Source of the DNA: an uncultured Acidiferrobacterales bacterium | Lineage (GTDB): Bacteria; Pseudomonadota; Gammaproteobacteria; Acidiferrobacterales; UBA6901 | Direction: 5' to 3' | DNA length: 49,065 nucleotides | Assembly: GCA_964368085.1 (NCBI GenBank) | Contig: CAYJBG010000003.1 | Coordinates: forward strand, 1 to 49,065 | Part shown: piece after piece, positions 5,895-40,854 of the stretch | Position numbering within the stretch: the first letter of the stretch is position 1 | How the letters are laid out: every line of letters starts with the position of its first letter | The notes under the pieces: generated by a model | What the model was told of the DNA's origin: nothing | What the model saw: only the letters and a program-made list of their open reading frames with translations | The model's database searches: none | Position numbers and translations under genes: made by a program

Positions 5895-6905
5895 TTATTT
5901 CACGCTCAGCGCTTTGTCAATCAGCTTCTGGCCGGCCGGCACTTCATTGGCGAACACGGCGTAGGAACTCTTGCGCGCAACTGCAATCCATTGATCATAT
6001 TCGGCTGCAGTCAGTGTCACGACTTCGACGTTGTTGTCCTTGAACACCTTGACCATTTTGTCGTCGAGGCCCTTGGCCTCCTTGGCGAAGTAGGCCTCGG
6101 ACTTTTTACCGGCCGCGAGCAGTACTTCCTGCTGCTGCTTGTTCAGGCGGTTGAAGCTCTTCTTCGACATGAGCACGGGCTCGTACATGAACCACAGCGC
6201 GTTTTCGCCCGGCGCGGTGATGCATTTCACCTGTTCGTAAACCCGGAACGAGACGAAGCTGCCCGAGCTGGTGTCGGTCGCGTCGGCGACGCCGGTCTGA
6301 AGGGCGTTATAGACCTCGTTCGACGGCACTGAGACGATCGAAGCGCCGGCCTCCTGCCACATCGCGGCGAAGGTCGGGCCGGCGGAACGTATCTTGAGCC
6401 CTTTCATGTCGGCCGGGACGCGGATGCAGCCGCCCTTGGACGCCACGGCGCCCGCGAGCCAGGCGTCGGCCAGCACCATCGCGCCGGCCTTGTCGATCTC
6501 CGCCTTGATCTCCTTCATGAACGACGAATCGTTCATGCGCGCCGCGCGCTCGTGGTTGCGCACCAGCCCCGGCATGAGCGTGGCGCTGAACGCGCGCACC
6601 TTGCCACTCGCGTAGTCGAGCGGCAGGGCGGTGATGTCGAGCTGGCCGCCGACGAGCGCGTTCCATTGTTCTTGCGCCTTGAACAGCGACGCGCCGGGAT
6701 AGACCTGGATTTCCAGACCGACATTCGCCGCTTTGGCTTCGCGCGCGATAATCTGCACCATCTCGTCGCGTACGTCGCCCTTGCCGCCCGGGAACTGGTG
6801 CGAGGCTTTGAGTACGAGGTCCGCGGCAGTCACGGGAACGGAAACGGAAACGAAACCCGCGCCGGCCAGCAGGGCCAACGCGGTGAACTTGGCAAATAGA
6901 GACAT
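5895..6905 (-). CDS. TRAP transporter substrate-binding protein (DctP family), candidate malonate receptor
   Basis: 336 aa. It has a signal peptide (LLAGAGFVSVSVPVTA/AD) and a DctP-type body. It is the first gene of the dctPQM-matA string. Confidence 0.9.
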   Translation of the reverse strand: MSLFAKFTALALLAGAGFVSVSVPVTAADLVLKASHQFPGGKGDVRDEMVQIIAREAKAANVGLEIQVYPGASLFKAQEQWNALVGGQLDITALPLDYASGKVRAFSATLMPGLVRNHERAARMNDSSFMKEIKAEIDKAGAMVLADAWLAGAVASKGGCIRVPADMKGLKIRSAGPTFAAMWQEAGASIVSVPSNEVYNALQTGVADATDTSSGSFVSFRVYEQVKCITAPGENALWFMYEPVLMSKKSFNRLNKQQQEVLLAAGKKSEAYFAKEAKGLDDKMVKVFKDNNVEVVTLTAAEYDQWIAVARKSSYAVFANEVPAGQKLIDKALSVK

Positions 6906-7140
6906 GAATTCCTCCTACCTAAATATAGGGTGTGCGTTTGACGACGGATCGTTCGAGCGTTGTTATTATCGCCTTGTCGGGCCCGGGAACAGACAACTCC
7001 CCACGACCGCGGTATCCCTTACCGCAGGCCCAACACGGTACCCGATCTTTAACGATGCTTGATTATTCGTGGCCAGCCTCTGTCCTGTCAAGACAAATGC
7101 ACCGTGCCCGGAAACCCCTATACCCTCCACCGCACAAAAC

Positions 7141-9916: not shown

Positions 9917-10599
9917 GCGGGGTTCCGGAAGTAGTCGTCGAACACGTGCACCGTGTAGGCGTGCGTGAGCGCACGCCGCAGCACCGGGTCGCGCAGCTCG
10001 AGCGTGATCGTCGCTCCACCTTTCGGCGGCGCGCCCAGCGTCGGCGCCGTGCCGCCAAAAAACAGGCGTCCGTCCGATCGCACGCCGTCGTGGCGCGCGA
10101 CGAACTCGGCAAGCGTCGCGATCGGCAGGAGATTGGCCACGCCACCCTCCTGCAAGACTGTCTCGCCACAGCTCGCGCGCAGTTGCAGCGCGTCCCAGTG
10201 CTCCCGCACCTCGGCCAGCGGCCACGCCGTCGCGCCGACCACCTTGGGGCAGGAGTTCTTGCCTTGCAGCGAAGACGCCGCCTCGATGCGCCGGTCGGTG
10301 TGGTCGCTGCCCACGGTCACGTAATCCACGCCCTGGCACGTGAACAGGACCGCCTCCACTTCAGGCGTCGAGTCTGTTCCGATCACGCCGATGTCGGTGG
10401 CATTGGTCACGAGTGTTGGCATCAATGGATAGAGCATCGGCACATGCGGTGGGGGCTTGACGCCCATCTCCGCCATGCGTGCGATATGGCGCTGCACCTT
10501 CTCGGCGTCCCGCCCGGTCGCACCCAGGGCCAGCGCGCGCCTGACCTCCAGCGTGATGCGTTGACCTTCCGGCAGCTCGAAGGTGAGTACCGGGAACAC
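9913..10599 (-). CDS. DUF2848-like protein, 228 aa
   Basis: The pattern ..GATGRD...V..HI..M...GV..P...P.LY......T......VIG..S..EVE.VL......YVTVGSDHTDR..E......K..CPK.. matches my recollection of DUF2848. A GTG start lies 1 nt after the upstream gene's stop. Confidence 0.6.
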   Translation of the reverse strand: MFPVLTFELPEGQRITLEVRRALALGATGRDAEKVQRHIARMAEMGVKPPPHVPMLYPLMPTLVTNATDIGVIGTDSTPEVEAVLFTCQGVDYVTVGSDHTDRRIEAASSLQGKNSCPKVVGATAWPLAEVREHWDALQLRASCGETVLQEGGVANLLPIATLAEFVARHDGVRSDGRLFFGGTAPTLGAPPKGGATITLELRDPVLRRALTHAYTVHVFDDYFRNPA

Positions 10600-13510: not shown

Positions 13511-13650
13511 GCCGACCGGCCCCTGCGGGCGGGCAGACCGGCCGCCTGCAATCCCAAAAATACCGGATGGTGAAACACGGCTGCGACCTCTTTAAGATCA
13601 GGAGAAAAGGAGTCCGCTACGCCCGGGGATTATTAAAGATCGGAGCTCCC

Positions 13651-13660
13651 TTGTATACAA
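13651..13660. promoter_or_regulatory. Perfect 10-bp palindrome TTGTATACAA in the divergent promoter region (candidate GntR-type operator)
   Basis: Read directly. It lies in the AT-rich 277-bp spacer between the 13510(-) and 13788(+) starts. It fits the generic GT-Nx-AC operator logic. No cognate regulator gene is in the window. Confidence 0.3.
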
Positions 13661-13787
13661 AATACTTGCGTTATGTATTCAGTTCGCGATACTTCTACAC
13701 GCTGAAATGGACAGGTCCGCAGTGCGGCACTGGCATCCGGATGCAGCCCAGTTTGGGTCTCTGGCACGACGAATTAGAGAGGGAAAT

Positions 13788-14987
13788 ATGGCATTCCGAA
13801 GCGGGCGCCACTTTTTGCAGATTCCCGGTCCAACCAATGTCCCGGACCGAATCCTGCGGGCCATCCACCAGTCCACCATCGATCATCGCGGTCCCGGCTT
13901 CGCCCAGCTCGGGACCGAAGTCCTCGCCGGCCTGAAGCAGGTCTTCAAGACCAAAAGCGACGTCGTCATATACCCGGCTTCCGGAACCGGTGCCTGGGAA
14001 GCGGCGCTGGTGAACACACTCTCCCCCGGCGAGCGCGTGTTGATGTTCGAGACCGGCCAGTTCGCCGCTCTCTGGCAACGCATGGCCGGCGAACTCGGGC
14101 TCAACACCGAGTTCGTGCCCGGCGACTGGCGGCATGGCGCCGACCCGGACCTGGTCGAGTCAAAACTGCGCGCCGACCGCCAGCACGAGATCAAGGCGGT
14201 GTGCGTCGTACACAATGAAACCTCCACCGGCGTCACCAGCCGTATCGGCGAGATTCGCGCCGCCATGGACCGCGCCCGGCACCCGGCGCTGCTCATGGTC
14301 GATACCATCTCCTCGCTGGCCTCGATCGACTACCGGCACGATGAATGGGGTGTCGACGTGACCGTCGGCGGCTCGCAAAAGGGGCTCATGCTGCCACCGG
14401 GCCTGAGCTTCAACGCCGTCAGCGCCAAGGCGCGCGCGGCGGCCAAGCAGGCAAGGCTGCCGCGCGCGTACTGGCGCTGGGAGGACATGATCCGCGCCAA
14501 CCAGTCCGGCTACTTTCCCTACACGCCGGCCACCAACCTGCTTTACGGGTTGCGCGAGGCGCTGAACATGCTGCTGAAGGAAGAAGGTCTCGACCAGGTA
14601 TTCGCGCGCCACGCGCGCCTGGCCGAGGCCACGCGCCGCGCGGTGCGCGCCTGGGGACTTGAGATTCTCTGTCTCAATGAAGCGGAGTACAGCAACACGC
14701 TCACGGCGGTGCTCGTACCCAAAGGCCACGATGCCGACAATCTGCGCGCCACCATACTCGAACGCTTCGATATGTCGCTCGGCACCGGCCTGGGCAAGGT
14801 CCAGGGCCGGGTGTTCCGTATCGGTCACCTCGGCGACTTCAATGAACTGATGCTGGCCGGAACGCTGTGCGGTGTCGAAATGGGTCTCGCCGCCGCCGGC
14901 GTGCCGCACCGCGCCGGCGGCGTGCTCGCGGCGCTCGAATACCTCGCCGGCGCGCAGCCCGCGTCCCGGGCCGCTGCCCGGGCCTGA
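13788..14987 (+). CDS. Class-V aminotransferase, serine-glyoxylate / alanine-glyoxylate aminotransferase-like, 399 aa
   Basis: GRHFLQIPGPTNVPDRILRAI..., YPASGTGAWEAAL, HEIKAVCVVHNETSTGV and GGSQKGLMLPPGL (PLP lysine) follow the SgaA/AGXT pattern. The ATG at 13788 is preceded by GAGAGGGA. Confidence 0.85.
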   Translation: MAFRSGRHFLQIPGPTNVPDRILRAIHQSTIDHRGPGFAQLGTEVLAGLKQVFKTKSDVVIYPASGTGAWEAALVNTLSPGERVLMFETGQFAALWQRMAGELGLNTEFVPGDWRHGADPDLVESKLRADRQHEIKAVCVVHNETSTGVTSRIGEIRAAMDRARHPALLMVDTISSLASIDYRHDEWGVDVTVGGSQKGLMLPPGLSFNAVSAKARAAAKQARLPRAYWRWEDMIRANQSGYFPYTPATNLLYGLREALNMLLKEEGLDQVFARHARLAEATRRAVRAWGLEILCLNEAEYSNTLTAVLVPKGHDADNLRATILERFDMSLGTGLGKVQGRVFRIGHLGDFNELMLAGTLCGVEMGLAAAGVPHRAGGVLAALEYLAGAQPASRAAARA

Positions 14988-29117: not shown

Positions 29118-29207
29118 GCACCTCCACGTGTTTCGCTCCGGCGCGCGGAGTGAATGAGTCTTCATTCACTAACGGAAACCAGCGTGCCACGACGGCACGC
29201 ACCGACT

Positions 29208-29507
29208 TCACACGGGGAAGGAACGCGGCGGGGCGCGCGAGAAGTAGGCCGACGGTGGATCGCCGGCGATACAGGTATGGCGGAGAGAAATCGGAAGCAG
29301 CGGCGCCGGTAGCGGTGCCATGACAGCAGCGGTTACCGGCAAGGCGCCGGTCAGCGGCGTATGGGCAAGACACCATTCACAGGCGTGGCTGGACGCATGT
29401 GGCTCGAGGTTCGCGCCATGCTGCACCAGCAACCACTGTGCGAACAGCAGCACACCCGCGAGTGACAGCGCAAGCAGCGGACGTGACAGAAGGCGATGCC
29501 GCAGCAT
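29208..29507 (-). CDS. Small membrane-anchored CxxC protein, DUF2946-like (tentative), 99 aa
   Basis: It has an N-terminal TM/signal anchor (LLSRPLLALSLAGVLLFAQWLL) and then HASSHACEWCLAH. The start was trimmed to the ATG at 29507. The family assignment is from memory only. Confidence 0.4.
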   Translation of the reverse strand: MLRHRLLSRPLLALSLAGVLLFAQWLLVQHGANLEPHASSHACEWCLAHTPLTGALPVTAAVMAPLPAPLLPISLRHTCIAGDPPSAYFSRAPPRSFPV

Positions 29508-29544
29508 GCGGCCGTTATACCCGCTCGCGTTGCGCGCGGCAAGC

Positions 29545-30252
29545 TCAGCGGCGCGGCGCACCCGACCACCAGCGCACACTCGCGCCGAGCGGGGCGCGCC
29601 CGAGGCGCGGCTGCAACCAATAACGCAGCACCACCAGACTGATCGCCACCGCGATGAGCGCGGCGACCAACGCATCGCTTGGGTAGTGTTTGGCAAGCGC
29701 CAGTCGGCTCAGGGCGAGTGCGCCGGCCCAGAGCAGGCACAGGCCAGCGGCCCACGGGTTGCGAAACAGGAGCGCGGCGAACAGCGTGCTGATCACAATG
29801 TCGGCGCTGTGGCCGGAGGGAAACGAGTGATGCGCCGCGTCCCAGCTGAAACCGGCCCACTCGCTGCCGAAGTCCGGCAACGGCGTGGCATCCGGGCGGG
29901 CGCGACCAAACGTCATCTTCAATATGCGCACAATCAACACGCTGCCCAGGAATTGCGCGAGCAGATAACCCTGCGCGAGAAGTTTCAGACCGGGTTCGCG
30001 GCGATACCAGCCCCAGGCGAACAGCGCGAGGAACAGGATATAGAAAGGGTACAGGCCGTAGTTGGTAAACGCGCGCAGGAACGCGTAATGCTCTTGCGTC
30101 CAGGCCGCGCGGTGCACGAGTGCGACACTGCCGCTGTCGCCGTACACCAGCGCGAGCAGCAGACCGAGCACAGCGAGTGTGGCAAATGCGGCCGTCACGA
30201 ACTGCAGGCGGCGGGTGAGCGGTGCGAACTTCGGTTTCGCGCGGCGCGGCAT
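29545..30252 (-). CDS. PAP2-family lipid phosphatase
   Basis: All three acid-phosphatase motifs are present: KMTFGRARP, FPSGHS and SRLALAKHYPSD. The protein is multi-TM. Confidence 0.85.
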   Translation of the reverse strand: MPRRAKPKFAPLTRRLQFVTAAFATLAVLGLLLALVYGDSGSVALVHRAAWTQEHYAFLRAFTNYGLYPFYILFLALFAWGWYRREPGLKLLAQGYLLAQFLGSVLIVRILKMTFGRARPDATPLPDFGSEWAGFSWDAAHHSFPSGHSADIVISTLFAALLFRNPWAAGLCLLWAGALALSRLALAKHYPSDALVAALIAVAISLVVLRYWLQPRLGRAPLGASVRWWSGAPRR

Positions 30253-30312
30253 GGGCGGAAACTATACCACAGGCACTCTTTCCGAATGATGCACTCAGTG
30301 GCAGGCACGGCA

Positions 30313-30545
30313 GCGAAACCGCAAACGGGCCGTCCCTCGGCAACTGCTCCCGGCGTTGCTCTCGACCGCTTGTTCCCGACGCGGTCTACCGCCTCCATCC
30401 CTGGAGGCGTACCTCCTGCATCCATGCAGTCGTGGCCCGCGGCCCTCGAACACGTGCCCCTGACGTCCCGCCTAAAACATCTCCCATCGGCGAAACCGCA
30501 AACGGGCCTTCCCTGGCCCGCGGCCCTCGCCTCGATCCCATCGGC
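30313..30545. repeat. Composite REP/MITE-like repeat region between divergent PAP2 genes
   Basis: Direct repeats: GCGAAACCGCAAACGGGCC at 30313-331 and 30490-508; TGGCCCGCGGCCCTCG at 30433-448 and 30514-529. Hairpins: CCTCCA-tccc-TGGAGG (30392-407) and CTGCAT-cc-ATGCAG (30416-429). Confidence 0.65.
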
Positions 30546-30552
30546 GAATGCT

Positions 30553-31266
30553 ATGATGCCGTTCACGAACACCATCACGGCGCCTTTCATGTCTGCCCTG
30601 CTCCGCCGCCATCTCGATCTGTTGCTGCTTTTCGCTATCGGCGTGCTGCTGGTGGCCTTCCCCCGGATCGATATTGCCTTCGCCGGTCTGTTCTATGACC
30701 CCTTCGACGGCTTTTACTTGCGCGAGAATCCGTTCGTGCGTCTTGTCTTCAATGGCGTGTCGTGGATTACGCGCACCGTGGTCGTGAGTCTCGTGCTGTT
30801 CCTGCTCGCCGCCTGGACGATCCGGAGGCGGCACAGGTTTTTTTCGCGTCAACGGCGCGCCGCGCTTTATCTGTTGCTGGTCATGATCATCGGACCGGGC
30901 CTGCTGGTGAACACGGTATTCAAGGATCAGTGGGGGCGCGCGCGCCCGTCGCAGATCGAGGAATTCGGCGGCACCAAACAATTCACGCGCGCCGCCATCC
31001 CCGCCGACCAGTGCGAAAAAAACTGCTCATTCGTGAGCGGCCATGCCTCGGTGGGCTTCTTCTTTCTGTCATTCTCTTTCGTCTGGCCGCGCCGCCGGGT
31101 TCTCTGGTTTGCCGCAGGCGCCGGCCTTGGGCTCGGCATCGGCCTGGTGCGCATGATGCAGGGCGGGCATTTCATCAGTGACGTGATCTTTTGTGGCATC
31201 GTCGTCTATCTCAGCGCGCGTGGCCTGTACGCGCTGATGTTCGCGCCGGCTGAACCCCGCTCCTGA
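30553..31266 (+). CDS. PAP2-family lipid phosphatase (second copy, divergent)
   Basis: 237 aa from the ATG at 30553, which is only the C-terminal part of the 648-aa track ORF. Motifs are KDQWGRARP, VSGHAS and VRMMQGGHFISD. Confidence 0.85.
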   Translation: MMPFTNTITAPFMSALLRRHLDLLLLFAIGVLLVAFPRIDIAFAGLFYDPFDGFYLRENPFVRLVFNGVSWITRTVVVSLVLFLLAAWTIRRRHRFFSRQRRAALYLLLVMIIGPGLLVNTVFKDQWGRARPSQIEEFGGTKQFTRAAIPADQCEKNCSFVSGHASVGFFFLSFSFVWPRRRVLWFAAGAGLGLGIGLVRMMQGGHFISDVIFCGIVVYLSARGLYALMFAPAEPRS

Positions 31267-31418
31267 TTCGCGTCCATAGACGATTTTATCGGGCGCAAAC
31301 CTCCCACGGTGAAACCCAGCGAAGGGGCTGAACCTCCCCGTTGGAAGCGCAACAGGCATCGCCTGTTATCCCTTGCCCCGGCTTGGCCCACCTTGTTTTC
31401 CCGCTATCATTAGGATGG

Positions 31419-34400
31419 ATGCCCACGCGTCGAACACCCAAACCACGGGCCACGGCCCGGCCCGCGAAACTCTCCCCGCCCCGGCTTGGGGCGATCCAGC
31501 CGCGCCCGCGACTCTTCAAGCTCCTCGACCGGGAACGAAAACACCCCATCGTGTGGATCGAAGCCCCGGCCGGGGCCGGCAAGACCACGCTTGCCGCAAG
31601 TTACCTCATCGCGCGCCGGTTGCGAACACTCTGGTATCAGATCGACACCCGCGACGCCGACCCGGCGGCATTCTTCTATTATCTTCGGCTGGCGGTCCAA
31701 AAGATTTCACCGCGCAAGACCGAGATACTCCCGCTGCTCACGCCGGAGCACTACGCCGGACTTGCGGTGTTTACGCGAAATTTCTTCGAGGAAATCGCGC
31801 GGCGCCTACCGTCGTCCACCGCGATCGTGTTCGACAACTATCAGGACGTTCCAGAGAACGCGCCGCTGCACGCGCTCCTCGCCGAGGCGGTCACAGCACT
31901 CCCACGCGGCATCTCCCTGATCGTGCTGAGCCGCGCCGAGCCACCGCCCGCCTTTGCCCGGCTTCGCGCTCACGGCGAAATCGCGCGGCTCGGCTGGGAC
32001 GAGGTCCGGCTGACGCGCGCCGAACTCGCCGGCTTCGTGCGCGCACACCGTACCCGGCTCTCGAGCGGTGCGCTCAACCGGCTGTACGAGCGCACCGACG
32101 GCTGGGCCGCCGGCGTGCGCGTGGTGCTTGAGAGCGGCAGTGACGCGGAAGCGCGCGCCAGTGAGTCGCTGTTCGACTACTTCGCCGCCGAGATTCTGCG
32201 ACACGCCGAACCGGCGTTGCGTGAATTTCTGTTCTCAACCGCGCTGCTGCCACAGATCACGGTGTCCGCCGCCGAGGCGTTGACCGACAACCACGGCTCC
32301 GCGCGCATCCTCGCCGACCTTACGCGCCGCAATTTCTTCACCGTGCGCCGCACCGGGCCGGAGACGGCGTACGAGTACCACCCGCTGTTTCGAGAATACC
32401 TGCTGCACGCCGCGGCGGCGCACCACGGGCACGAGGCCTGGGTCACACTCAAGCGCCGGACCGCAACGCTCCTCATCGCCGACAATCAGTTCGAGCACGC
32501 CGCGCGACTCATGCACGAGGCGGGTGATACTCCGGGCCTCGCCGAGATCATCGCCGCCCAGGCCACCACGTTCGCCGCCCAGGGGCGGCTTCAGACCCTC
32601 GAATACTGGCTGCGGGCACTGCCGGCCGAAACACTCGAACACTCCGGCTGGCTCAGCTACTGGTTCGGCATCTGTAGGCTGCCGTTCGACTTGATCGAGG
32701 CGCGCGCGCACCTGGAGCGCGCCTACGCCGGGTTCCAGCAGACCGATGATTCGCCCGGGTTATACCTCGCTTGGGCGGGGGTCGTGGAGACGTTCTTCTA
32801 TCAATGGGACGATTACGCGCCGCTCGATCGCTGGCTCGACGAACTTGAGAGACTGCGGCAGACGCATCCGCTGGATCGCTGCGCGCAGGTGCAACCGCGC
32901 GTGGTCTATGCGGCGTTGAGCGCGCTTGGCTTTATTGGCACCGGCCGCCCCGAGCTAAGTGTTTGGGTGCAGGCGGGCGAGACGCTGCTCACGACCTTGC
33001 ACGACCCGAACCTGCGCGTGCTGCTCGCCGCGGCGCTGTGCCTGCACTGCGTGTGGATCGGCGACCTCGAAAAGCTCGACGTAATCGCGACGCAGTTGCG
33101 CACGCAGTTGAAGGGCGCGGAACTCGCACCGGTGGCGCATTTTCACGGCTATTTCGCACTCGCCGAGCACGGCTGGATCACCGGCGACGTCGTGCAAGGC
33201 GAACGCTGGCTGCGCGCGGGCTTCGCCTACGGTGAGCGCCTTGGCATCCGCATGTTCGAGCCGCTGTTGTGCGGGCAGGCGCTGTATCTCTACGAAGTCA
33301 ACGGCGACGAAGATGCCGTGGCCCGCACACTCGAACGCATGCGCCGGGCGCTCGACCCGCGCCGCCGTCTCGATCTCGCACATTACCGTTACCACGCGAC
33401 CTGGCTCGCGCTCGCGCGGGGCGAGGCGCGCCGGGCACGCGACCTCGCCGAGCAATCACTCGCGCTCGCCGAGTTGTTGTTCGCCCGCTTTCCGATCGCG
33501 CTCAACCGCATTCGATTGGCCGAGACGTTGGTGGAGCTCGCGGAATTCGCGGACGCCCACCGGCACCTCGACGCGGCCGGGACAATCGCCGCACGCATGG
33601 GCAGCGAATTGCTTCGATTCATGACTGGACTGGTGCGCGCCTGGGCGTGGCATCGGGCCGGATGTACGGAGGAGGCCGGCCGAACGCTCGCGGCGACCTT
33701 CGCTCTCGGACAACGCCTGGGCTATCGCGCCTACCCGGGCTGGAACGGCAAGATCGTCGCGGCGCTGTGCGCGCAGGCGCTCGCGCGCGGCATCGAACCC
33801 GACTACGCCCGCCGCCTGATTCGCGAACGCGGGCTGGTGCCGCCGGACAATGCCGGCGATATCGACACCTGGCCCTGGCCGGTCAAGGTCTACGCCCTCG
33901 GATGCTTCGACGTGCGCGTTGACGAACGCCCGCTGCCTGCGCGCGGCAAGCAGCAGCGCAAACCGCTCGATCTGGCGAAACTCCTGGTGAGCGCCGGACC
34001 GCGCGGCCTGTCCACGGAACAGGCGATCGAAACGCTGTGGCCGGAGCAGAACCAGGAACGCTCTTATCAATCGTACTCCATGGCGCTGCACCGGCTCCGC
34101 AAGCGGCTGGGTACGGACGAGTGTATCCTCGCCCAGGATGGCCGCGTGCTCCTGAACCCGCGCCGTGTCTGGGTCGATGCCTGGGCCTTTGAGCAGACGT
34201 TCGCGCCGCGCGCCGACACCAGCGCCACCGCGCGGCTCGAGCGCGCAGTAGCGCTCTACAAAGGAGCGTTTCTGGGCGAAGCCACAGCCGAACCCTGGGG
34301 CCTGGCTTATGCCGAGCGGCTTTATAGTAAGTATCTGCGCGCGGTGCTGGAGCTGGGTCAGCACCGGCAGAAGGAAGGCGCCTTCGAGCGCGCCATCGAG

Positions 34401-34601
34401 CTCTACCAGAACGCTCTCGAACACGACGACTTGCAGGAATCCCTCTACCAGCGCCTGCTCGTCTGTTACGGCGAAACCGGTCGCCGCGCCGACGGGCAGC
34501 GCGCCTACGAACGCTGCCGCAAGTGCCTGCAAGAGGCGCTCGGCGTCAGCCCCTCGGCGCAGACCGAAACACTAAGGGCGCGGTTGCTCAAGACGCAGTA
34601 A
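31419..34601 (+). CDS. STAND-type ATPase with helical/TPR-like middle and a C-terminal SARP module (OmpR-type winged helix + BTAD), 1060 aa
   Basis: The N-terminus is MalT-like (LSPPRLGAIQPRPRLFKLL...WIEAPAGAGKTTLAASYL is Walker A, about 31563-31589; AIVFDNYQDV is Walker B-like). A long helical repeat region follows. The C-terminus from about 33880 reads VKVYALGCFDVRVDERPL...KPLDLAKLLV...LSTEQAIETLWP...LHRLRKRLG (wHTH) and then ALYKGAFLGE...YLRAVLELGQ...AIELYQNALEHDDLQESLYQRLLVCY...GRRADGQRAYERCRKCLQEALGVSPSAQTETL (BTAD). Confidence 0.8.
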   Translation: MPTRRTPKPRATARPAKLSPPRLGAIQPRPRLFKLLDRERKHPIVWIEAPAGAGKTTLAASYLIARRLRTLWYQIDTRDADPAAFFYYLRLAVQKISPRKTEILPLLTPEHYAGLAVFTRNFFEEIARRLPSSTAIVFDNYQDVPENAPLHALLAEAVTALPRGISLIVLSRAEPPPAFARLRAHGEIARLGWDEVRLTRAELAGFVRAHRTRLSSGALNRLYERTDGWAAGVRVVLESGSDAEARASESLFDYFAAEILRHAEPALREFLFSTALLPQITVSAAEALTDNHGSARILADLTRRNFFTVRRTGPETAYEYHPLFREYLLHAAAAHHGHEAWVTLKRRTATLLIADNQFEHAARLMHEAGDTPGLAEIIAAQATTFAAQGRLQTLEYWLRALPAETLEHSGWLSYWFGICRLPFDLIEARAHLERAYAGFQQTDDSPGLYLAWAGVVETFFYQWDDYAPLDRWLDELERLRQTHPLDRCAQVQPRVVYAALSALGFIGTGRPELSVWVQAGETLLTTLHDPNLRVLLAAALCLHCVWIGDLEKLDVIATQLRTQLKGAELAPVAHFHGYFALAEHGWITGDVVQGERWLRAGFAYGERLGIRMFEPLLCGQALYLYEVNGDEDAVARTLERMRRALDPRRRLDLAHYRYHATWLALARGEARRARDLAEQSLALAELLFARFPIALNRIRLAETLVELAEFADAHRHLDAAGTIAARMGSELLRFMTGLVRAWAWHRAGCTEEAGRTLAATFALGQRLGYRAYPGWNGKIVAALCAQALARGIEPDYARRLIRERGLVPPDNAGDIDTWPWPVKVYALGCFDVRVDERPLPARGKQQRKPLDLAKLLVSAGPRGLSTEQAIETLWPEQNQERSYQSYSMALHRLRKRLGTDECILAQDGRVLLNPRRVWVDAWAFEQTFAPRADTSATARLERAVALYKGAFLGEATAEPWGLAYAERLYSKYLRAVLELGQHRQKEGAFERAIELYQNALEHDDLQESLYQRLLVCYGETGRRADGQRAYERCRKCLQEALGVSPSAQTETLRARLLKTQ

Positions 34602-34734
34602 TCCGGTTTTTCTTCTTCGATACCCATTGCACCGTTGTTCGCGATAGAACCGGTATTACCCTGGTAAAACACTCCCGGGCGCCTGCCAAAACCGTACTGC
34701 CTTGCCCTCATCCACCGATCCTGCTGCTTGAAAA

Positions 34735-34818
34735 CCCCTCTCCCTGTGGGAGAGGGGCAAGGAGTGACGACTGCATGGATGCAGGAGGTGGAACAACGCA
34801 TGGAGCAGTTGCCGAGGG
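34735..34818. repeat. REP-like element; a shorter, inverted copy of the 30334-30433 element, plus a perfect 10-bp hairpin
   Basis: The hairpin is CCCCTCTCCC-tgt-GGGAGAGGGG (34735-757). ACGACTGCATGGATGCAGGAGGT (34767-789) is the exact reverse complement of 30411-30433. GGAGCAGTTGCCGAGGG (34802-818) is the exact reverse complement of 30334-30350. Confidence 0.7.
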
Positions 34819-34935
34819 CTGGGTTTCGGGTCGTGGTCGGTCATTTTCCAGACCCTCTTTAAAGTCTTTCCCGGCGCAAGCAGCCCTCCCCGAATCGGTG
34901 AGTCATCTGTTAACCCACCACTCTACGCTTGGCGC

Positions 34936-35112
34936 ATGGAGAGTTACGTGCTGCGCATCTACCGCCGCGACGGCGAGGGCCGCCTCACCGGGCTCGTGGA
35001 ACGGGTCGAGACCCAGGAACGCCTTGCCTTTCACAGTGCGCGCGAGTTGTGGTCGATCCTGCACAACCACGCGCTGGCGCGCAAAAAGAGCAGGCGCCGG
35101 AAATCCGCCTGA
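34936..35112 (+). CDS. Small ORF (58 aa) absent from the track: MESYVLRIYRRDGEGRLTGLVERVETQERLAFHSARELWSILHNHALARKKSRRRKSA
   Basis: Hand-translated. Third-codon-position G+C is very high (about 85% by my count), like the real genes here. It falls below the 60-aa track cut-off. No obvious SD. Confidence 0.55.
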   Translation: MESYVLRIYRRDGEGRLTGLVERVETQERLAFHSARELWSILHNHALARKKSRRRKSA

Positions 35113-35347
35113 GCGCATGCCGTGAATCTGGGTGGCGGCGTTGGCTGTAAGCCGCAAGTAAACCCGCGTTGCCCGGGATGCGTCTTGCGACAGGGACACG
35201 CGATGGACGCCATGAATCTTGAATACGACAGTGAAACCGGACCAACAACGAAAACGAACAGGAGACGACTATGCATTGCAGGACTTTGGCGGGACAAAAC
35301 GCGCACGCTGTAGCAGCACGTAAGCGCCGGGACAAGACCGCACCGCA

Positions 35348-36025
35348 ATGAACGCGATACCTGCGACTCCGGTTGCCATGTTCTTCAAGGGCATCCCCCT
35401 CTTTGCGGACTTAAGCGATGCCGACCACGGTCTGTTGCTGAAGGTGGCAATGCGTCGCCGTTATCCGCGCCACACGCTGCTCGTCCAGGAAGGCGATGCG
35501 GGCGAGCGCTTCCATCTCCTGCGCCAAGGCCGGGCCAAGGTCTATCTCGGCAATCCCGGGGGTCGCGAGGTGATCCTCGCGATCCTCGGGCCCGGCGACT
35601 TCCTCGGGGAAATGGCGCTGCTCGATGCCGAACCCTGTTCGGCCAATGTCATGACCCTCGAGGAAAGCGAGTTCGTCTCGATCGGCAAGGGCGAATTCCA
35701 GCAGGTGTTGGCCTCGTCCCCGAGCATGGCGGTGAACCTGCTCAAGGCCTTGTCCCAAAGGCTGCGCGAGGCCAACCAGCAGATCGAATCGCTGGCGCTG
35801 AAGGATGTGCAGGCGCGGGTCGAGCAAGCCCTGCGCGGACTCGCCGAACCCGAGGGCGGGGATCTCGTGATCCCGGCACGCCTCACCCACCGCGAGATCG
35901 CCGCCATGGTCGGCGCCTCGCGCGAGATGGTGACTCGGATATTTCGCAGTCTCGAAGAGAGCGGGGTGGTGCGGGTTGAGGGACGGCGCATCACGCTGAC
36001 GCCCCGTGGCCCGGCACAGGCCTGA
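35348..36025 (+). CDS. Crp/Fnr-family transcriptional regulator (cNMP-binding domain + C-terminal HTH)
   Basis: 225 aa. GDFLGEMALLD is a cNMP-binding signature. THREIAAMVGASREMVTRIFRSLEESG is the HTH. There is no N-terminal Cys cluster, so it is not an O2-sensing FNR type. Confidence 0.9.
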   Translation: MNAIPATPVAMFFKGIPLFADLSDADHGLLLKVAMRRRYPRHTLLVQEGDAGERFHLLRQGRAKVYLGNPGGREVILAILGPGDFLGEMALLDAEPCSANVMTLEESEFVSIGKGEFQQVLASSPSMAVNLLKALSQRLREANQQIESLALKDVQARVEQALRGLAEPEGGDLVIPARLTHREIAAMVGASREMVTRIFRSLEESGVVRVEGRRITLTPRGPAQA

Positions 36026-36079
36026 AAAAAGTTACCGCATTGGTGATGCAGATCACCGAACACCGGGATTTTCTCCGGC

Positions 36080-36110
36080 TTCGGTGATTCTCGTCACCGA
36101 ACGGATTTTT
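36080..36110 (+). terminator. Rho-independent terminator after the Crp/Fnr gene
   Basis: TTCGGTGA-ttctcg-TCACCGAA is followed by cggaTTTTT. A second hairpin, GGTGAT-gcag-ATCACC, lies just upstream at 36042-57. Confidence 0.7.
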
Positions 36111-36273
36111 GCCTTTCCCTATTCTCTGGGTTCGTTTCAGGGCACACGAAACGCGGAGGATATGACGAAACCGAAAAGGCGCCGGCCCTGAAACACGCAT
36201 GCCGGGATGAATTTCAAATTTGTCGGTAAAGCAGTTTCCCTAAACTTTGAAAGCGACCAAAAGGTGAATCACG

Positions 36274-36729
36274 ATGAAAACGAACCTGAAACAGAAATTC
36301 CTGCGTACCGTCTTGGGCGGCATGGGGGCCCTGCTGTTGTTGTCCGCCCCGAGTGCCTTTGCCTTTCCCACCACCGGAACCTGCGCGATGTTGGTGACCC
36401 AGCCCGTGCCGTATGGGGCGAGTCTTCCACATTCAACCGGCTATAACATTCTCGCGACGCTGACTTTCACAAGCGCTACGGCCGGCACAGTTGAATATGT
36501 CGGTGCGAGAGCGACTTACGCCACGACCGGAGTCACTGTCGGTACCCCTGAAACCGGAAGCTGGCCATTCACCATCGCGGCAGGCCCCATTGCCGGTTCG
36601 AAGACATTCTCGTTTACCGATACAACCTATGGCTCAACCGTAACCGCCAACATGTACGCCGTGAACGGGGACAGAACCATCCTGGTGCAAGGGGCCAATG
36701 ATCTGTTCAGCGGTGTCTGCCAGTTCTGA
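36274..36729 (+). CDS. Secreted protein of unknown family, 151 aa (mature ~121 aa, predicted all-beta)
   Basis: It has a Sec signal peptide (GGMGALLLLSAPSAFA/FP). Cys residues near both mature termini (TGTCAML ... SGVCQF) could form a disulfide. AAGGTGA is upstream. Its GC3 is lower than that of the surrounding core genes. Confidence 0.7.
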   Translation: MKTNLKQKFLRTVLGGMGALLLLSAPSAFAFPTTGTCAMLVTQPVPYGASLPHSTGYNILATLTFTSATAGTVEYVGARATYATTGVTVGTPETGSWPFTIAAGPIAGSKTFSFTDTTYGSTVTANMYAVNGDRTILVQGANDLFSGVCQF

Positions 36730-36740
36730 GGAGAATCGCC

Positions 36741-36896
36741 ATGAAACCAGTCACCCATTTTGGAATGGCCTTGGCGGTAGCAGCGCTGCTGATCCTGGCC
36801 GGCTGCGGCGGAGGCGGGGGTTCCTCGGCGGCAGCGGCCGACACAACGTCTACCACTTCTTCGGTGGCCGTTACAACTGTTCTAACGACGCAGTAG
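36741..36896 (+). CDS. Small lipoprotein (51 aa) absent from the track: MKPVTHFGMALAVAALLILAGCGGGGGSSAAAADTTSTTSSVAVTTVLTTQ
   Basis: Hand-translated. It has a lipobox (LILAGC). GAGGAG lies 7 nt upstream of the ATG, and the gene starts 11 nt after the previous gene. Confidence 0.55.
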   Translation: MKPVTHFGMALAVAALLILAGCGGGGGSSAAAADTTSTTSSVAVTTVLTTQ

Positions 36897-36945
36897 CCAG
36901 AACGGAATGAGGACAACGCTTGCAACTTTAATGAGGAGAAACGTC

Positions 36946-38664
36946 ATGCAAGAATTCATCTCAACGTATCGGAGATTCTTCACCGCATTGATCGCGTCGT
37001 TGCTCGCGTCGCTCGCCGCCTGCGGTGGCGGTGGTGCGTCGACGCCTCCACCGCCTGCGGCGCCACCCACAGCGTCCTCGGTGATGGCGCTTTATACCAG
37101 TGCCGCGAACTGGAACGACTACTTGCGCAACGACGGCGCGAGCCTATTCCAGGCGAGTAATACTGCTTGCACCGGTACCGAAACCGGCGACCACAACGTC
37201 TGCCTGCACGGCGGTGAGTTGCGCGCCGTGGTTGTGGCCGGACGCAGCAGTTGCGCGGGACTCTCTGCCGCCGACGCGCTCGGCGCCTTCGACTGGACCT
37301 GCGACGCTTCCGTAAACCCGGTACGCGTGGTCTCGGCGGGTTTGAAGCGCAACAAGAATCTTTCGGACCTGATCGACTTTTCCGCGGCGGCCTGGCGCGC
37401 CAACAGCGTGACGGTGAGCGACGGCGCGACGGCGCTGTTTGCCACCCCGTCATCCGCGTGGTGGAGCAACCCCGTGACACTCGCGAACGGCGGCGGCACG
37501 CTCGCCGCCGCCGGCACGACCTATCTCGCCACGGCCAACCCGGATGCCGTCTACACCTTCGGCGCCGACCGCGTGGCGTTCGTGGTGCAACCCGGGATCG
37601 AGATTACCGCGCCCGCGGCCATGCCGCGGGTCGTGTACGGCAGCGCGAAAAACTTTCTCTGGCTCGAAGGCGCAATCCATATTCAGGGCACGAACAGCGG
37701 GATCTCGCTCTTCACGGTCAAGTTCTCGCGCCTGCGCAACGTCGCGATTCGCGGCAGCGGCGGAACTTCCGGTACCGCCGCCCTGGACACCGACGCGTTG
37801 TCCGCGAGCCGGTTACTGCGTGTCACGATCATCAAGTCGGCTCTTTTCGGCGCCTATTTCACCAACGCCGGCGGTAACCTCATCGAGGAGATTGCGGTCG
37901 CGGACAACGCCGATACAGGACTGCGCCTCACCGGAAATCACAACGTGGTTTCTGGAGTGAAGGCCCAGGGCAACGGCGGTTTCGCCGGTATTCTGTACGG
38001 CGGCCCGCAAACCCTCCAGCAGGTCTACGCGGGCGGCAACGCGGGCAGCGGCATCGTCTCCTTTTCCGGCCAGAACAGCCGGGTCAATAACACCACGACC
38101 GTCAATAATGCCAGCGGCGGCCTGAGGCTCGCCAATGACGGCGCCACGGTCTCCGACGCGAGCCTGGTGATCAATCTCGCGAGCGCCAACGACGGCGCCG
38201 GGCTTACGCTCGTCAATACCGCCGGCGCTCCCAGTCCGGCACCGGCGGGCGGCACGTTCGAAAACCTGGCGATCGGCCACGCGGGGGCGATCGGGGTGAC
38301 GCTGCAAAATTCCTCGAACAATCGTTTCACCGGGCTGCTCAAGGTCGGCAACAATCTGACCGATTGCACCGTTACTGGCACCAACCCCGGGCTCGTGACG
38401 ACCACCTGCGCCAACCAGGGCGCCTCGGACGCCGTGCTCACGACGGGCATCGGCCTGGCGGCGAGCATTCCGGGAAAGGTAACGGGCGACGACGCCGTGA
38501 ACACCAGCGACGCCAGCGGGCTCGCCGCCTACGACACGCTCACCGACTGGCTCGGCTTCGCCAACGAGGCGCGCGGCTGGGGGCGCGACGGCAGCGCCTT
38601 CCCCACAACGCCGACCACCGTGGGCGCTGCGCCACCGGCGCGAACTGCCGCATCTGGGACATGA
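36946..38664 (+). CDS. Lipoprotein with a Cys-rich N-terminal region and a right-handed parallel beta-helix-like repeat region (N-terminal 572 aa as annotated)
   Basis: The ATG at 36946 follows GAGGAG. The lipobox is LASLAAC, followed by GGGG. Repeated ~22-25-aa G/N/T/S-rich segments occur (NVAIRGSGG..., NLIEEIAVADNADTGLRLTGNHNVVSGV..., GNAGSGIVSFSGQNSRVNN...NASGGLRLANDGATV...). GC3 collapses for the last ~20 codons, and the coding signal moves to the -1 frame at 38601-38604. Confidence 0.7.
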   Translation: MQEFISTYRRFFTALIASLLASLAACGGGGASTPPPPAAPPTASSVMALYTSAANWNDYLRNDGASLFQASNTACTGTETGDHNVCLHGGELRAVVVAGRSSCAGLSAADALGAFDWTCDASVNPVRVVSAGLKRNKNLSDLIDFSAAAWRANSVTVSDGATALFATPSSAWWSNPVTLANGGGTLAAAGTTYLATANPDAVYTFGADRVAFVVQPGIEITAPAAMPRVVYGSAKNFLWLEGAIHIQGTNSGISLFTVKFSRLRNVAIRGSGGTSGTAALDTDALSASRLLRVTIIKSALFGAYFTNAGGNLIEEIAVADNADTGLRLTGNHNVVSGVKAQGNGGFAGILYGGPQTLQQVYAGGNAGSGIVSFSGQNSRVNNTTTVNNASGGLRLANDGATVSDASLVINLASANDGAGLTLVNTAGAPSPAPAGGTFENLAIGHAGAIGVTLQNSSNNRFTGLLKVGNNLTDCTVTGTNPGLVTTTCANQGASDAVLTTGIGLAASIPGKVTGDDAVNTSDASGLAAYDTLTDWLGFANEARGWGRDGSAFPTTPTTVGAAPPARTAASGT

Positions 38665-39035
38665 GCCTCGCGAGCGCCGATACCGTGGTACGCGGCGTGC
38701 TCCCCAAGTACCTGAACGGCAACGCCGCGAGCACCATTATGCACGTCTGGTCGGTCACGGCGCCGACCAACCAGGCCGACTGTACCGCGGCCGTACCCGG
38801 CTCGGTGTTCTCGGGTGGCGAGTGCCGCAACACCTTCCTGCGCAATGCCGTGGAGATTTTGGGTGACGGGTTCGGCAACGACAACGGCCTGTGCGAGTCG
38901 AACGAGCGCTGCCTGCACACGCCCAACATCGGTGCCTACCAGGGCCACGGCGCGCTGATCTCGGCCGGCGGCTTCACGAACGGCGACACGTTGAGCAGCA
39001 TCGAGCTGCTCGAATACTCGACCAATGGCCGATGA
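38604..39035 (+). CDS. C-terminal continuation of the beta-helix lipoprotein in the -1 frame (alternatively a separate ATGA-coupled 124-aa ORF from 38661)
   Basis: The frame-0 translation is HNADHRGRCATGANCRIWDMSLASADTVVRGVLPKYLNG...CESNERCLHTPNIGAYQGHGALISAGGFTNGDTLSSIELLEYSTNGR*. It has high GC3 from 38604 onward, is Cys-rich like an extracytoplasmic domain, and has no signal peptide of its own. Confidence 0.55.
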   Translation, partial: HNADHRGRCATGANCRIWDMSLASADTVVRGVLPKYLNGNAASTIMHVWSVTAPTNQADCTAAVPGSVFSGGECRNTFLRNAVEILGDGFGNDNGLCESNERCLHTPNIGAYQGHGALISAGGFTNGDTLSSIELLEYSTNGR

Positions 39036-39096
39036 GCGGCCGTGTCGATATTTGCGAACAATACGGTGTTGAAACCGGTGTAAGAGGAGAAACCAA

Positions 39097-40854
39097 ATGC
39101 TGAAGATACCGGCGGTCATCAAAGTCTTGTCCCTGGCCACGCTACTCGCCCTCGCCGCCTGTGGAGGCGGCGGGGGCGGAGGCGGTGGTGGCGCCACGCC
39201 GCCGGTCACCGGCTTTACTAAAAACGTGTCCTTGCCCGTCGCGCCTGCGGGCGACTGGAATCTTTTCTCCTCGGGCGCAGGCTCCAAGCGCTACCAGGCC
39301 CTGGTCCGGGCGCAGGACATTCGAGGCTCCGGCCCGCTGCGGTCGTTGGCGTTCCGGCGCGGCGCGGACTCGATTGGCAACAGTTGTCCGAACGTCACCA
39401 TTAAGCTCGTGCACCGGCCCGTTAGCGCCACACTCGACACCACCTTCGCCAACAACGTCACGCCGGGGCGGGGCGCGGTAACAACCGTGTTCGGCCCAGC
39501 CACGCTCACGATTCCCGCCGAATTTGCTGGCGAGTATTTCACTATCCCCTTGAACGGCGCGTTCAACTACAACGGCGTGGATAACCTGATCGTGGACATC
39601 GAGACCGACGGTTGCAGCGCGAACACCGTGATCGACGCCCGCGATGCGAACCCGGTGTACACCGCGCTGATCTACCACTTTACCGACCGCACGGCGCCCA
39701 CGGGTTCAACCTGGAACAGCCTCGCCGACATGAAGTTCACCTTCGCCGGTGGCGACAACCGGGTGCAGTCTCCCGGCGCCTTGGGTCTCAGCTCCTTTCC
39801 ATTCACTGCGGCAGCCGGGGGAGCCAAAGTCCAACTGCTCTACTACAGCTCCGCATTCACCAGCGATGAAATCGACGGCAGCGGTCCGATTACGGGCATT
39901 GCCTTCCCGATCGCGGGCGGCGCTGGTTTCCCACCCGGCCCAGTGACCGCGCAAACCCATACGGTCACCGTGAAGCTCGGCCACTCGACCCTCACCGCCC
40001 TTACCGACACGTTCGCGAACAATTTCAACAGCGGTGCCCCGGTGACCGTGGCCAATGCCGTGACGTTCGAGATTCCGGCGGGTGTGCCGGCCGGACGATA
40101 CCTTTGGGCGCCGCTGCCGGACGGAACATTCAACTACAACGGTACGGACAATCTCATCGTCGAGATCGAGGCGAGCGCCGCACCGGCATTCACCTGGACG
40201 ACCACGCATGAAGATACGCTGAGCCAGCGACGGCTCTCGGCCTCTTCGGGTGCGACGACCGGGATGCTGGACAGAATCGTGAACGACATCCAACTGCGCT
40301 TCGCCGGCGGCGGCATGGACGCGATCACTCCAGACGCGATGTCGGGCGGCCTCTCGGATTCTTTCCCGTTTGCCAACATCAACGGGAAGCGCCAATTCCT
40401 GTATCGCGCCGCAGAACTCGGCACCCGGGGAACGATCTCGAAAATCGCGTGCCGCACCAACACGGGCGGTCCGAGCACGACTGGCTTCAACTACTCAGTG
40501 GTACTGAGCCACAGCACGGCGTCCACTCTGGACACCAGCTTCGCTACTAACTTGGTGAGCCCGGTAACGGTGTTCAGCGGTACATTCAACCTGCCGGCGA
40601 TGGTCGCCGGCGATTGGATCGAGATCCCCTTGACGACGCCATTCGCCTACAACGGTCGACACAACTTGGTGCTGGAAATCGGCGGTACCGGTGGAGAATC
40701 GGGTGGCGGGATTTTTTCGGACAGGTTTGCGTGCGCACGCGATGACGCAAGCACCGCGCTTTACGCCGGACGCCGGTTGTTCGGTGCAACATCGACTGAC
40801 GCCACGGGCTCCGTAAGCAACTCGATGATCGACACGCGCTTCACGTTGCAATGA
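39097..40854 (+). CDS. Lipoprotein composed of three tandem copies of a ~180-aa module of unknown family, 585 aa
   Basis: The lipobox is LLALAAC, followed by poly-Gly. Conserved blocks recur three times: TFANN / TFANN / SFATN at aa 116, 305 and 481; F(N/A)YNG..NL(I/V)(V/L)(D/E)I at aa 156, 345 and 516; and a module end of (K/R)F(T)(F/L) at aa 213, 401 and 581. Confidence 0.8.
   Translation: MLKIPAVIKVLSLATLLALAACGGGGGGGGGGATPPVTGFTKNVSLPVAPAGDWNLFSSGAGSKRYQALVRAQDIRGSGPLRSLAFRRGADSIGNSCPNVTIKLVHRPVSATLDTTFANNVTPGRGAVTTVFGPATLTIPAEFAGEYFTIPLNGAFNYNGVDNLIVDIETDGCSANTVIDARDANPVYTALIYHFTDRTAPTGSTWNSLADMKFTFAGGDNRVQSPGALGLSSFPFTAAAGGAKVQLLYYSSAFTSDEIDGSGPITGIAFPIAGGAGFPPGPVTAQTHTVTVKLGHSTLTALTDTFANNFNSGAPVTVANAVTFEIPAGVPAGRYLWAPLPDGTFNYNGTDNLIVEIEASAAPAFTWTTTHEDTLSQRRLSASSGATTGMLDRIVNDIQLRFAGGGMDAITPDAMSGGLSDSFPFANINGKRQFLYRAAELGTRGTISKIACRTNTGGPSTTGFNYSVVLSHSTASTLDTSFATNLVSPVTVFSGTFNLPAMVAGDWIEIPLTTPFAYNGRHNLVLEIGGTGGESGGGIFSDRFACARDDASTALYAGRRLFGATSTDATGSVSNSMIDTRFTLQ

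Follow-up and report, generated by a model that had tools for sequence, protein, structure and literature searches.

We analyzed a window of 49,065 nucleotides, the whole of contig positions 1 to 49,065 of CAYJBG010000003.1 (assembly GCA_964368085.1), from an uncultured Acidiferrobacterales bacterium. The window carries a gene for a large regulator that joins a MalT-type STAND ATPase and a helical sensor to a C-terminal SARP module, here an OmpR-type winged helix-turn-helix (HTH) followed by a bacterial transcriptional activation domain (BTAD). An unannotated 58-aa open reading frame (ORF) lies downstream on the same strand, directly behind a predicted tandem-repeat operator. Based on these features, the regulator is probably a one-component, signal-gated activator that turns on the small ORF through this operator. 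The architecture alone is an annotated, unstudied variant. What we add is a conserved three-part cassette made of a SARP-type regulator, an operator, and a new small protein.

The domain order, a MalT-type NOD followed by a helical sensor and then by winged helix and BTAD, was supported by profile searches and by an AlphaFold model (pLDDT 87.2, pTM 0.80, with the sensor mostly above pLDDT 90). An earlier note on this DNA had placed a winged helix and a BTAD behind a STAND ATPase, and profiles, PDB sequence matches, and the AlphaFold model confirmed this placement. Its claim of a MalT-like N-terminus with Walker A and Walker B motifs also held. The NCBIfam MalT model matched residues 15–409 against model positions 4–408 of 903 with E = 7e-54. 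The score, 183 bits against an equivalog cutoff of 537, falls far short because the C-terminal half is unmatched. The MalT structure 8bob was matched at E = 2.6e-25 (phmmer against PDB sequences), and Foldseek aligned the AlphaFold model with 8bob_C over 417 columns (E = 8e-15, TM(target) 0.81). The STAND-TPR structure 6mfv was another Foldseek match to the model. The Pfam family WHD_MalT (PF25873) was precomputed on the window's own protein and on its relatives, and TPR_MalT (PF17874) was present in many homologs. Residues G52, G54, K55, and T56 of Walker A and V137 and D139 of Walker B were invariant in 40 homologs. The P-loop Walker motifs, of the forms GxxGxGK[ST] and hhhhD, the MalT-like NOD, and the helical-repeat sensor after the arm are those of the MalT clade of STAND proteins. 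The helical repeats, which had been put at about 700 aa, cover about 470 aa (residues 338–804). As for the gene start, the longest ORF spans 31341–34601 (+) and opens with TTG. Translation probably begins at the ATG at 31419, since M1 encoded there lines up with the first residues of at least 90% of 40 full-length homologs.

The C-terminal part of the regulator is a SARP module. Pfam BTAD matched residues 920–1057 with E = 5.8e-21, and an OmpR-type winged helix, the arrangement that defines the SARP family, lies directly before it. The winged helix begins at residue 822 (nt 33882), in agreement with the start near 33880 proposed in the earlier note. Mycobacterium tuberculosis EmbR (2fez) aligned in sequence over residues 827–1060 with E = 8.5e-5. 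In Foldseek, the AfsR SARP domain (8hvr, 8k60) matched the regulator model over about 250 columns with TM(target) 0.64–0.69, and the EmbR fold was also matched by the C-terminus. Residues R892 and R894 were invariant across the regulators that share the operator box described below. Both lie within helix 879–897, which we took as the recognition helix, and their invariance fits one DNA sequence common to the family. The module occupies residues 822–1058 of 1060, at the opposite end from the N-terminal placement that, to our knowledge, all characterized small, medium, and large SARPs share. No LuxR/GerE domain was matched in the Pfam scan, and the regulator has neither the C-terminal LuxR HTH nor the full-length MalT equivalog match that strictly define MalT and the large ATP-binding LuxR-family (LAL) regulators. 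The AfsR-type order of SARP, NB-ARC-type NOD, and TPR is reversed, as had been noted from the letters alone, and the NOD is of MalT type. Because the ATPase belongs to the MalT clade, the regulator is best regarded as a MalT-type STAND protein with a SARP module in place of the LuxR HTH, not as a permuted AfsR.

Genome comparison linked the regulator to the small ORF. The two closest relatives examined (58% and 45% identity) carry an unannotated 68–69-aa gene about 100 bp downstream, and these genes are homologous to the 58-aa ORF of the window. Among about 22 genome loci with enough flank, searches with a regular expression and then a hidden Markov model (HMM) located the small ORF next to the regulator in 13, mostly 70–350 bp downstream on the same strand. 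For the reverse test, 80 metagenome loci were seeded on the small ORF alone by a scan with six close small-protein sequences. Of these, 53 had 800 bp or more of upstream sequence, and in 40 of the 53 the regulator C-terminus lay directly upstream on the same strand, with a modal gap of about 200 bp. After near-identical loci were collapsed, regulator and small ORF occurred together in 16 of 24, a count that includes a regulator detected by HMM alone, a remnant, and a case in which the regulator lies 3 kb beyond the small ORF on its downstream side. Pairing was seen in about 55–65% of evaluable loci in both search directions. All-against-all ORF clustering of 66 genome loci gave no conserved large neighbor shared with the window. 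The survey of phylogenetic distribution and neighbors that the earlier note had proposed returned a widespread family with the small ORF as its conserved neighbor. At locus L100, a stand-alone 323-aa SARP without an ATPase lies upstream of the same box and small ORF. The box and the small ORF are therefore tied to the SARP module and not to the ATPase. Such stand-alone cases point to a conserved core of SARP module and small ORF, with the MalT-type sensor as an N-terminal addition. The genes upstream of the small ORF in L105 and L148 are apparently like the stand-alone SARP of L100.

The operator was first exposed as a tandem repeat by an intergenic alignment within one clade. In the 49-kb window, AATCNGTNNNNNATCNGT has its sole exact match at the predicted operator. 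The strict pattern AATCnGT-n4-AATCnGT likewise has one copy in the window, at 34893–34910, 43 nt before the small-ORF ATG. No further copy with 0 or 1 mismatch was found in the window, and the four matches with two mismatches are no more than chance. Of 82 distinct small-ORF upstream regions, 59 hold AATCnGT-n4-AATCnGT with 10 or more of its 12 positions matched, compared with 0.7% of shuffles. The repeat unit in 24 non-redundant loci was AATC-n-GT-[A/G]-A-[G/C]-[C/T] with an 11-nt period. Counted from the box start, +32 was T in 15 of these loci, +33 was A in 21, and +37 was T in 19, which corresponds to a TAnnnT -10 element at a fixed 9–10 nt after the 22-bp box. A scan of 2.1 Mb of genome loci gave 11 copies of the strict box where 0.5 would be expected, and a small-ORF copy directly follows 8 of them. 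In SARP-dependent promoters, direct repeats spaced by a helical turn overlap the -35 region, and 8 bp separate the 3' repeat from the -10 element (PMC10936776, PMC10832544). The repeats bound by SARPs have a spacing of 11 (or 22) bp. The predicted box and -10 element resemble this SARP operator layout, with a spacer of 9–10 nt, and suggest direct control of the small ORF by the regulator. The box also stands at -43 in L002 and L070 and at -47 in L023. In other clades it lies 62–152 nt upstream of the small ORF, most of which have a ribosome-binding site. In the window, the -10-like hexamer TACGCT ends 6 nt before the ATG and no Shine-Dalgarno sequence precedes the small ORF, so a leaderless small-ORF mRNA is predicted.

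Three loci showed other arrangements of these parts. In L016 (Burkholderiales), the regulator gene is itself preceded, at a distance of about 90 nt, by an exact box (9911–9928) that has a TAGAAT -10 element, and the small ORF lies about 4 kb downstream of the regulator end; the regulator may be autoregulated in this lineage. In L022, at 12718–14299 of a Competibacter metagenome-assembled genome (MAG), an operator box after the regulator is followed by an opposite-strand, transposase-like ORF of 475 aa and by no small ORF. The L022 regulator is shorter (920 aa), and the cassette appears disrupted. L136 has a 147-aa ORF (606–1047) upstream of its small ORF, three pieces of which match positions 107–145, 190–237, and 1024–1068 of the regulator profile. 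This ORF looks like a decayed regulator.

Several observations weigh against the regulator as an activator of the small ORF. The Pfam Trans_reg_C match to the winged helix (residues 847–900, E = 1.4e-3) is under the Pfam cutoff. The 9–10-nt spacer between box and -10 element differs from the 8 bp quoted for actinobacterial SARPs, TACGCT is a weak -10 element, and the leaderless start of the small ORF in the window is a prediction. About 35–45% of regulators have no small ORF in the available sequence, and about one-third of small ORFs have no nearby regulator; the pairing is therefore strong and not obligatory. The DNA of the window was traced only to groundwater metagenome DNA runs, none of them RNA. 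The direction of regulation, activation or repression, is not readable from sequence. Finally, D139 of Walker B is followed by N140, which is conserved in at least 90% of the family; the aligned residues of E. coli MalT are DD. In STAND ATPases, the catalytic base is usually this second acidic residue of Walker B, and with no acidic residue at this place hydrolysis of bound ATP may be impaired. The substitution of MalT's second D suggests slow hydrolysis and a long-lived ON state.

The small ORF belongs to a family of 3,271 relatives (E ≤ 1e-3), all of them named hypothetical. The family motif is SYxVRIYRR...GxVE...F...EL or, in detail, SY[IV][VL]RIYRR, a short loop, [IV]AGxVE, and F-x4-EL. 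Searches against Pfam and NCBIfam gave no family up to E = 10, and Foldseek against PDB gave no match below E = 0.5. AlphaFold predicted three strands and a helix over residues 4–42 (pLDDT 79) and a disordered tail. Within one clade, codon positions 1, 2, and 3 carried 11, 11, and 32 variable sites, respectively, and this third-position excess indicates purifying selection on the protein. Good Shine-Dalgarno sequences precede most family members. By these sequence signatures, the small ORF is a real protein-coding gene. A 200-aa GTG ORF (34523–35125) that overlaps the regulator 3' end and the small ORF in another frame matched no family, had no homologs among the loci, and was rejected as most likely spurious. 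A Candidatus Sulfobium MAG (L062, 13345–13770) encodes a fusion in which the small-protein domain is followed by a C-terminal PilZ domain, a cyclic di-GMP receptor (Pfam E = 1.1e-5). We dropped this fusion as a clue to small-protein function because it is confined to eight close relatives and is too narrow.

Tentatively, the small protein might serve as an AfsS-like partner of the SARP module or as a feedback factor on it, a role we would sooner doubt than assert. It is preferred because the association persists with stand-alone SARPs, because the small protein would come first among the circuit's outputs, and because AfsS offers a precedent. A nucleic-acid-binding effector is an alternative. 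The small protein could instead be the ligand or cofactor that the regulator senses, either in an RRNPP-style peptide pair or as a MalY/MalK-style inhibitor at the helical sensor. The tight adjacency of regulator and small ORF would suit such a pair, TPR-like sensors often bind peptides or proteins, and AfsS is known to bind AfsR (PMC10832544). Set against these points, the small protein lacks a signal peptide and has a predicted compact fold, and both the pairing and the operator persist in L100, where the SARP has no sensor or ATPase. The operator before the small ORF also marks it as at least a target. We consider a sensed ligand unlikely. What it would retain is feedback on the SARP module rather than binding at the sensor, and in that form it fits with the regulator as activator of the small ORF.

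The other genes around the regulator were also considered as its targets. The earlier note had listed a PAP2 phosphatase gene, the 58-aa ORF, a Crp/Fnr gene, and exported-protein genes as neighbors, and all lie at the places described. It had further suggested that the regulator might be the switch for one of them. Of these neighbors, only the 58-aa ORF is conserved beside homologs and has a predicted SARP-type operator, which supports the idea for this ORF; PAP2 has neither feature. PAP2 was dropped as a partner since it is not a conserved neighbor in the 66 genome loci. If PAP2 and/or the exported-protein operon were the real targets, the small ORF would be incidental. These genes are close by, and in many loci secreted-protein or lipoprotein genes, including beta-helix/NosD genes, lie directly behind the small ORF. 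No operator copy, however, was found near 29166–29319, 36026–36273, or 36730–36906, and the Crp/Fnr gene and a terminator-like hairpin stand between the small ORF and the exported genes. Such direct control of PAP2 or the exported genes is therefore quite improbable. The small ORF and the Crp/Fnr gene may be co-transcribed, because no terminator-like site separates them. Because no operator copy is present at the exported genes, any link of these genes to the circuit would be indirect, and they may be controlled through read-through or Crp/Fnr. Their place in the circuit has thematic support from other loci, without an operator of their own.

In many loci, the next gene starts 3–22 nt after the small ORF and its product has a signal peptide or lipobox. 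This cargo includes beta-helix/NosD proteins, BACON/Ig-like lipoproteins, 180–220-aa secreted proteins, and one protein with a PEP-CTERM-like tail. The Beta_helix/NosD Pfam families of the exported genes in the window recur directly after the small ORF in L077, L086, L120, and L131. In L100, a 223-aa secreted protein (6246–6917) directly follows the small ORF and ends in ...VPVPAALWLFGSGVLFLGRLSTRRRI. Its tail is like a PEP-CTERM/exosortase sorting signal, and homologs stand behind the small ORF in six loci. In L013, from about 5450, the gene overlapping the small-ORF stop starts ...ALAELYRHMKRKIHAFALRYL... and by eye resembles region 2 of an extracytoplasmic function (ECF) sigma factor; the Pfam scan gave nothing in its first 60 residues. 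In the window itself, the two 585-aa lipoproteins (36907–38664 and 39097–40854) each have a lipobox followed by a glycine run (LAACGGGG...). The two have no mutual BLASTP match. Beta_helix/NosD was found in the first alone, and the second has no Pfam family.

The secreted cargo also bears on a possible role in defense. Many bacterial STAND NTPases are defense proteins, and the regulator could accordingly be an Avs-like antiphage STAND, or belong to another conflict system, with the SARP module as effector. Avs3 (8dgc) did appear in the Foldseek list at E = 2.7e-8, with TM no higher than 0.16. PADLOC gave no defense-family match for the regulator or the small protein, and the regulator has no toxic effector domain of the kind that, together with a defense-model match, marks Avs systems. 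The effector would instead be a classical promoter-binding module with a conserved operator, and the downstream genes checked held secreted-protein cargo with no nucleases or other toxic effectors. We regard a conflict system as highly improbable.

Taken as an activator of the small ORF, the regulator would work in the following steps. An inducer would bind the sensor and lift autoinhibition between NOD and sensor, by analogy with MalT and AfsR (PMC10936776). ATP binding would then cause a conformational change or oligomerization, by which the C-terminal SARP modules are released or ordered. Two SARP modules would bind side by side on the 11-nt repeats and replace the -35 element, and RNA polymerase would be recruited to the TACGCT -10 element. 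We infer that binding here activates rather than represses. Transcription is predicted to begin at or next to the ATG at 34936 and would probably extend through the Crp/Fnr gene. The switch would have the small protein as its first output, and this protein may feed back on the SARP module, as AfsS does on AfsR.

The intergenic regions hold two further elements. A perfect 10-bp GC-rich hairpin without a T-run lies between the regulator and the small-ORF promoter and may insulate the two or terminate transcription. Rfam gave no credible structured RNA between regulator and small ORF. The promoter-like site upstream of the regulator is the sole sigma-70-like match in 31100–37000; one is expected by chance there, so it is weak evidence. 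If it is real, the regulator mRNA leader may be very short or absent. The coordinates of all features are collected in Table 1.

Table 1. Features of the regulator gene, the small ORF, and their surroundings in the window
Feature	Position	Strand	Description
PAP2 gene	29320-31266		Window neighbor
Promoter-like site TTGGCC-16-TATCAT	31383..31410	+	Consensus scan, 9/12 matches; ends 8 nt before regulator ATG
Regulator gene	31419..34601	+	1060 aa; MalT-type STAND ATPase, helical sensor, C-terminal SARP module
NOD (nucleotide-binding, helical, and winged-helix domains, MalT type)	31500..32423	+	Residues ~28-335
Walker A	31566-31589	+	Residues 50-57
Walker B AIVFDN	31821-31838	+	Residues 135-140
Arm and helical (TPR-like) sensor solenoid	32430..33830	+	Residues 338-804; ~24 helices (AlphaFold)
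OmpR-type winged HTH	33882..34175	+	Residues 822-919; Trans_reg_C, EmbR, AfsR fold, invariant columns
BTAD	34176..34592	+	Residues 920-1058; Pfam and AfsR/EmbR folds
Perfect 10-bp GC-rich hairpin	34735..34757	+	CCCCTCTCCC-TGT-GGGAGAGGGG; 134 nt after regulator stop, no T-run, unique in window
Predicted operator, 11-nt direct repeats	34893..34914	+	AATCGGTGAGT and CATCTGTTAAC; over -35 region
-10-like hexamer TACGCT	34924..34929	+	9 nt after box, 6 nt before small-ORF ATG
Small ORF	34936..35112	+	58 aa (MESYVLRIYRRDGEGRLTGLVERVETQERLAFHSARELWSIL...); unannotated family; predicted direct target of regulator
Crp/Fnr-family regulator gene	35348..36025	+	Pfam cNMP_binding and HTH_Crp_2
Terminator-like hairpin	36080-36101	+	First after small-ORF stop, not counting one within the beginning of crp/fnr
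Exported-protein genes	36274..40854	+	151-aa secreted protein, 585-aa beta-helix/NosD lipoprotein, second 585-aa lipoprotein; signal peptides, lipoboxes

Proteins with this architecture are widespread. In a search across 5.8 billion proteins, 1,403 of the 8,000 scored candidates matched. The best 120 of these were full-length (1,001–1,123 aa, 33–58% identity) with BTAD and WHD_MalT. All 120 have generic names, either "BTAD domain-containing putative transcriptional regulator" or "MalT/DNA-binding SARP", which bear out the earlier view that the architecture is annotated yet uncharacterized. Species-representative genomes placed the regulator in Burkholderiales, other Betaproteobacteria, Gammaproteobacteria (Acidiferrobacterales, Competibacter, and Aquisalimonas), deltaproteobacterial lineages, and Nitrospirota; nearly all of these genomes are MAGs. 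Acidobacteriota hold longer, more distant versions. In the Acidobacteriota loci L027, L028, L029, L033, L034, L036, and L039, tblastn matches spanned about 4.2–4.6 kb, compared with about 3.2 kb elsewhere, at 25–29% identity, and the small ORF was not nearby. At least in L027 and L028, a large gene (about 990–1,150 aa) comes right after the regulator, and its cluster spans eight loci. A literature search, with most subscription journals outside it, found no published study of a MalT-type NOD with a C-terminal SARP or of the small protein. The pairing of regulator and small ORF is common in uncultured bacteria, and we found no published description of it.

The STAND-SARP family is abundant in uncultured bacteria of groundwater, sediment, and soil. 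SARPs are usually seen as actinobacterial regulators of antibiotic production, and MalT-type STAND proteins as LuxR-HTH regulators of catabolism. This family unites the two, with the SARP module at the C-terminus. A wider reading, which we hold tentatively and at somewhat less than an even chance, is that of a widespread cassette in Pseudomonadota, Nitrospirota, and deltaproteobacterial lineages. Here a SARP module, usually behind a MalT-type STAND sensor, a 22-bp operator, and a protein of about 60 aa acting as an AfsS-like SARP partner would switch secreted, lipoprotein, or exosortase-type envelope operons. If so, AfsR-AfsS-style logic would be a general bacterial design and not a Streptomyces speciality. 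Partnership of the small protein with the SARP module would suggest that this type of circuit is ancient and general, and the variable secreted cargo would then point to common switching of envelope and extracellular functions by a cytoplasmic signal. Even as a mere one-component regulator, the protein would allow a large orphan family to be annotated and would supply a predicted operator motif. The comparative data yield a precise, testable hypothesis that names the operator and the target gene and predicts where transcription starts. They also bring to light more than 3,000 small proteins whose family is wholly unannotated.

The regulator can be compared with four known systems. With E. coli MalT and the LAL regulators, it shares the N-terminal NOD of the MalT clade, a sensor placed before the DNA-binding domain, and, presumably, gating by inducer and ATP. 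It differs in its C-terminal SARP module (winged helix and BTAD) where these proteins have a LuxR HTH, in its predicted operator of tandem 11-nt repeats instead of MalT boxes, and in having N after Walker B where MalT has DD.

The AfsR-AfsS system of Streptomyces likewise joins a SARP module to a STAND ATPase and a helical sensor, and the SARP folds match. The order SARP-NOD-TPR of AfsR is reversed in the regulator, whose SARP module is C-terminal. AfsR is usually assigned an NB-ARC-type NOD and, as far as this usual assignment goes, its NOD contrasts with that of the regulator, which groups with MalT by profiles and PDB matches. AfsR-type large SARPs are controlled through phosphorylation by Ser/Thr kinases; the genes next to the regulator in the window, L067, and L068 include no kinase. 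AfsS has repeated motifs, and the small protein is not known to share similarity with it. The hosts also differ, being Gram-negative lineages and Nitrospirota, and secondary-metabolite context is lacking. The AfsR operator consists of two 11-bp direct repeats over the -35 region, and its direct target is an ORF of about 60 aa immediately downstream (PMC10936776, PMC10832544). This adjacent gene, afsS, is a target that AfsR activates directly, and its product in turn binds AfsR and increases the affinity of AfsR for DNA (PMC10832544). The predicted 11-nt direct-repeat operator before the adjacent downstream small ORF is the counterpart in the window.

The SARP-LAL regulators of PimR type, known from polyene clusters, also combine a SARP module with a MalT/LAL-like ATPase without a LuxR HTH in one polypeptide. 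Their SARP module is N-terminal, the opposite order, and they are actinobacterial and lie inside antibiotic clusters. Their target is the gene of a PAS-LuxR regulator and not a small ORF, and they bind heptameric direct repeats (PMC5930380). In GSU1771 of Geobacter sulfurreducens, a receiver domain precedes the winged helix and the activator domain (PMC10599522). Like the regulator, it is a non-actinobacterial SARP with an N-terminal input domain, and it controls envelope and extracellular functions (PMC10599522). Compared by description, its input is a receiver domain and not a STAND ATPase, and neither a small-ORF partner nor an AATCnGT operator is reported for it. An arrangement with the sensor at the N-terminus and the SARP module at the C-terminus therefore has a precedent in general in GSU1771.

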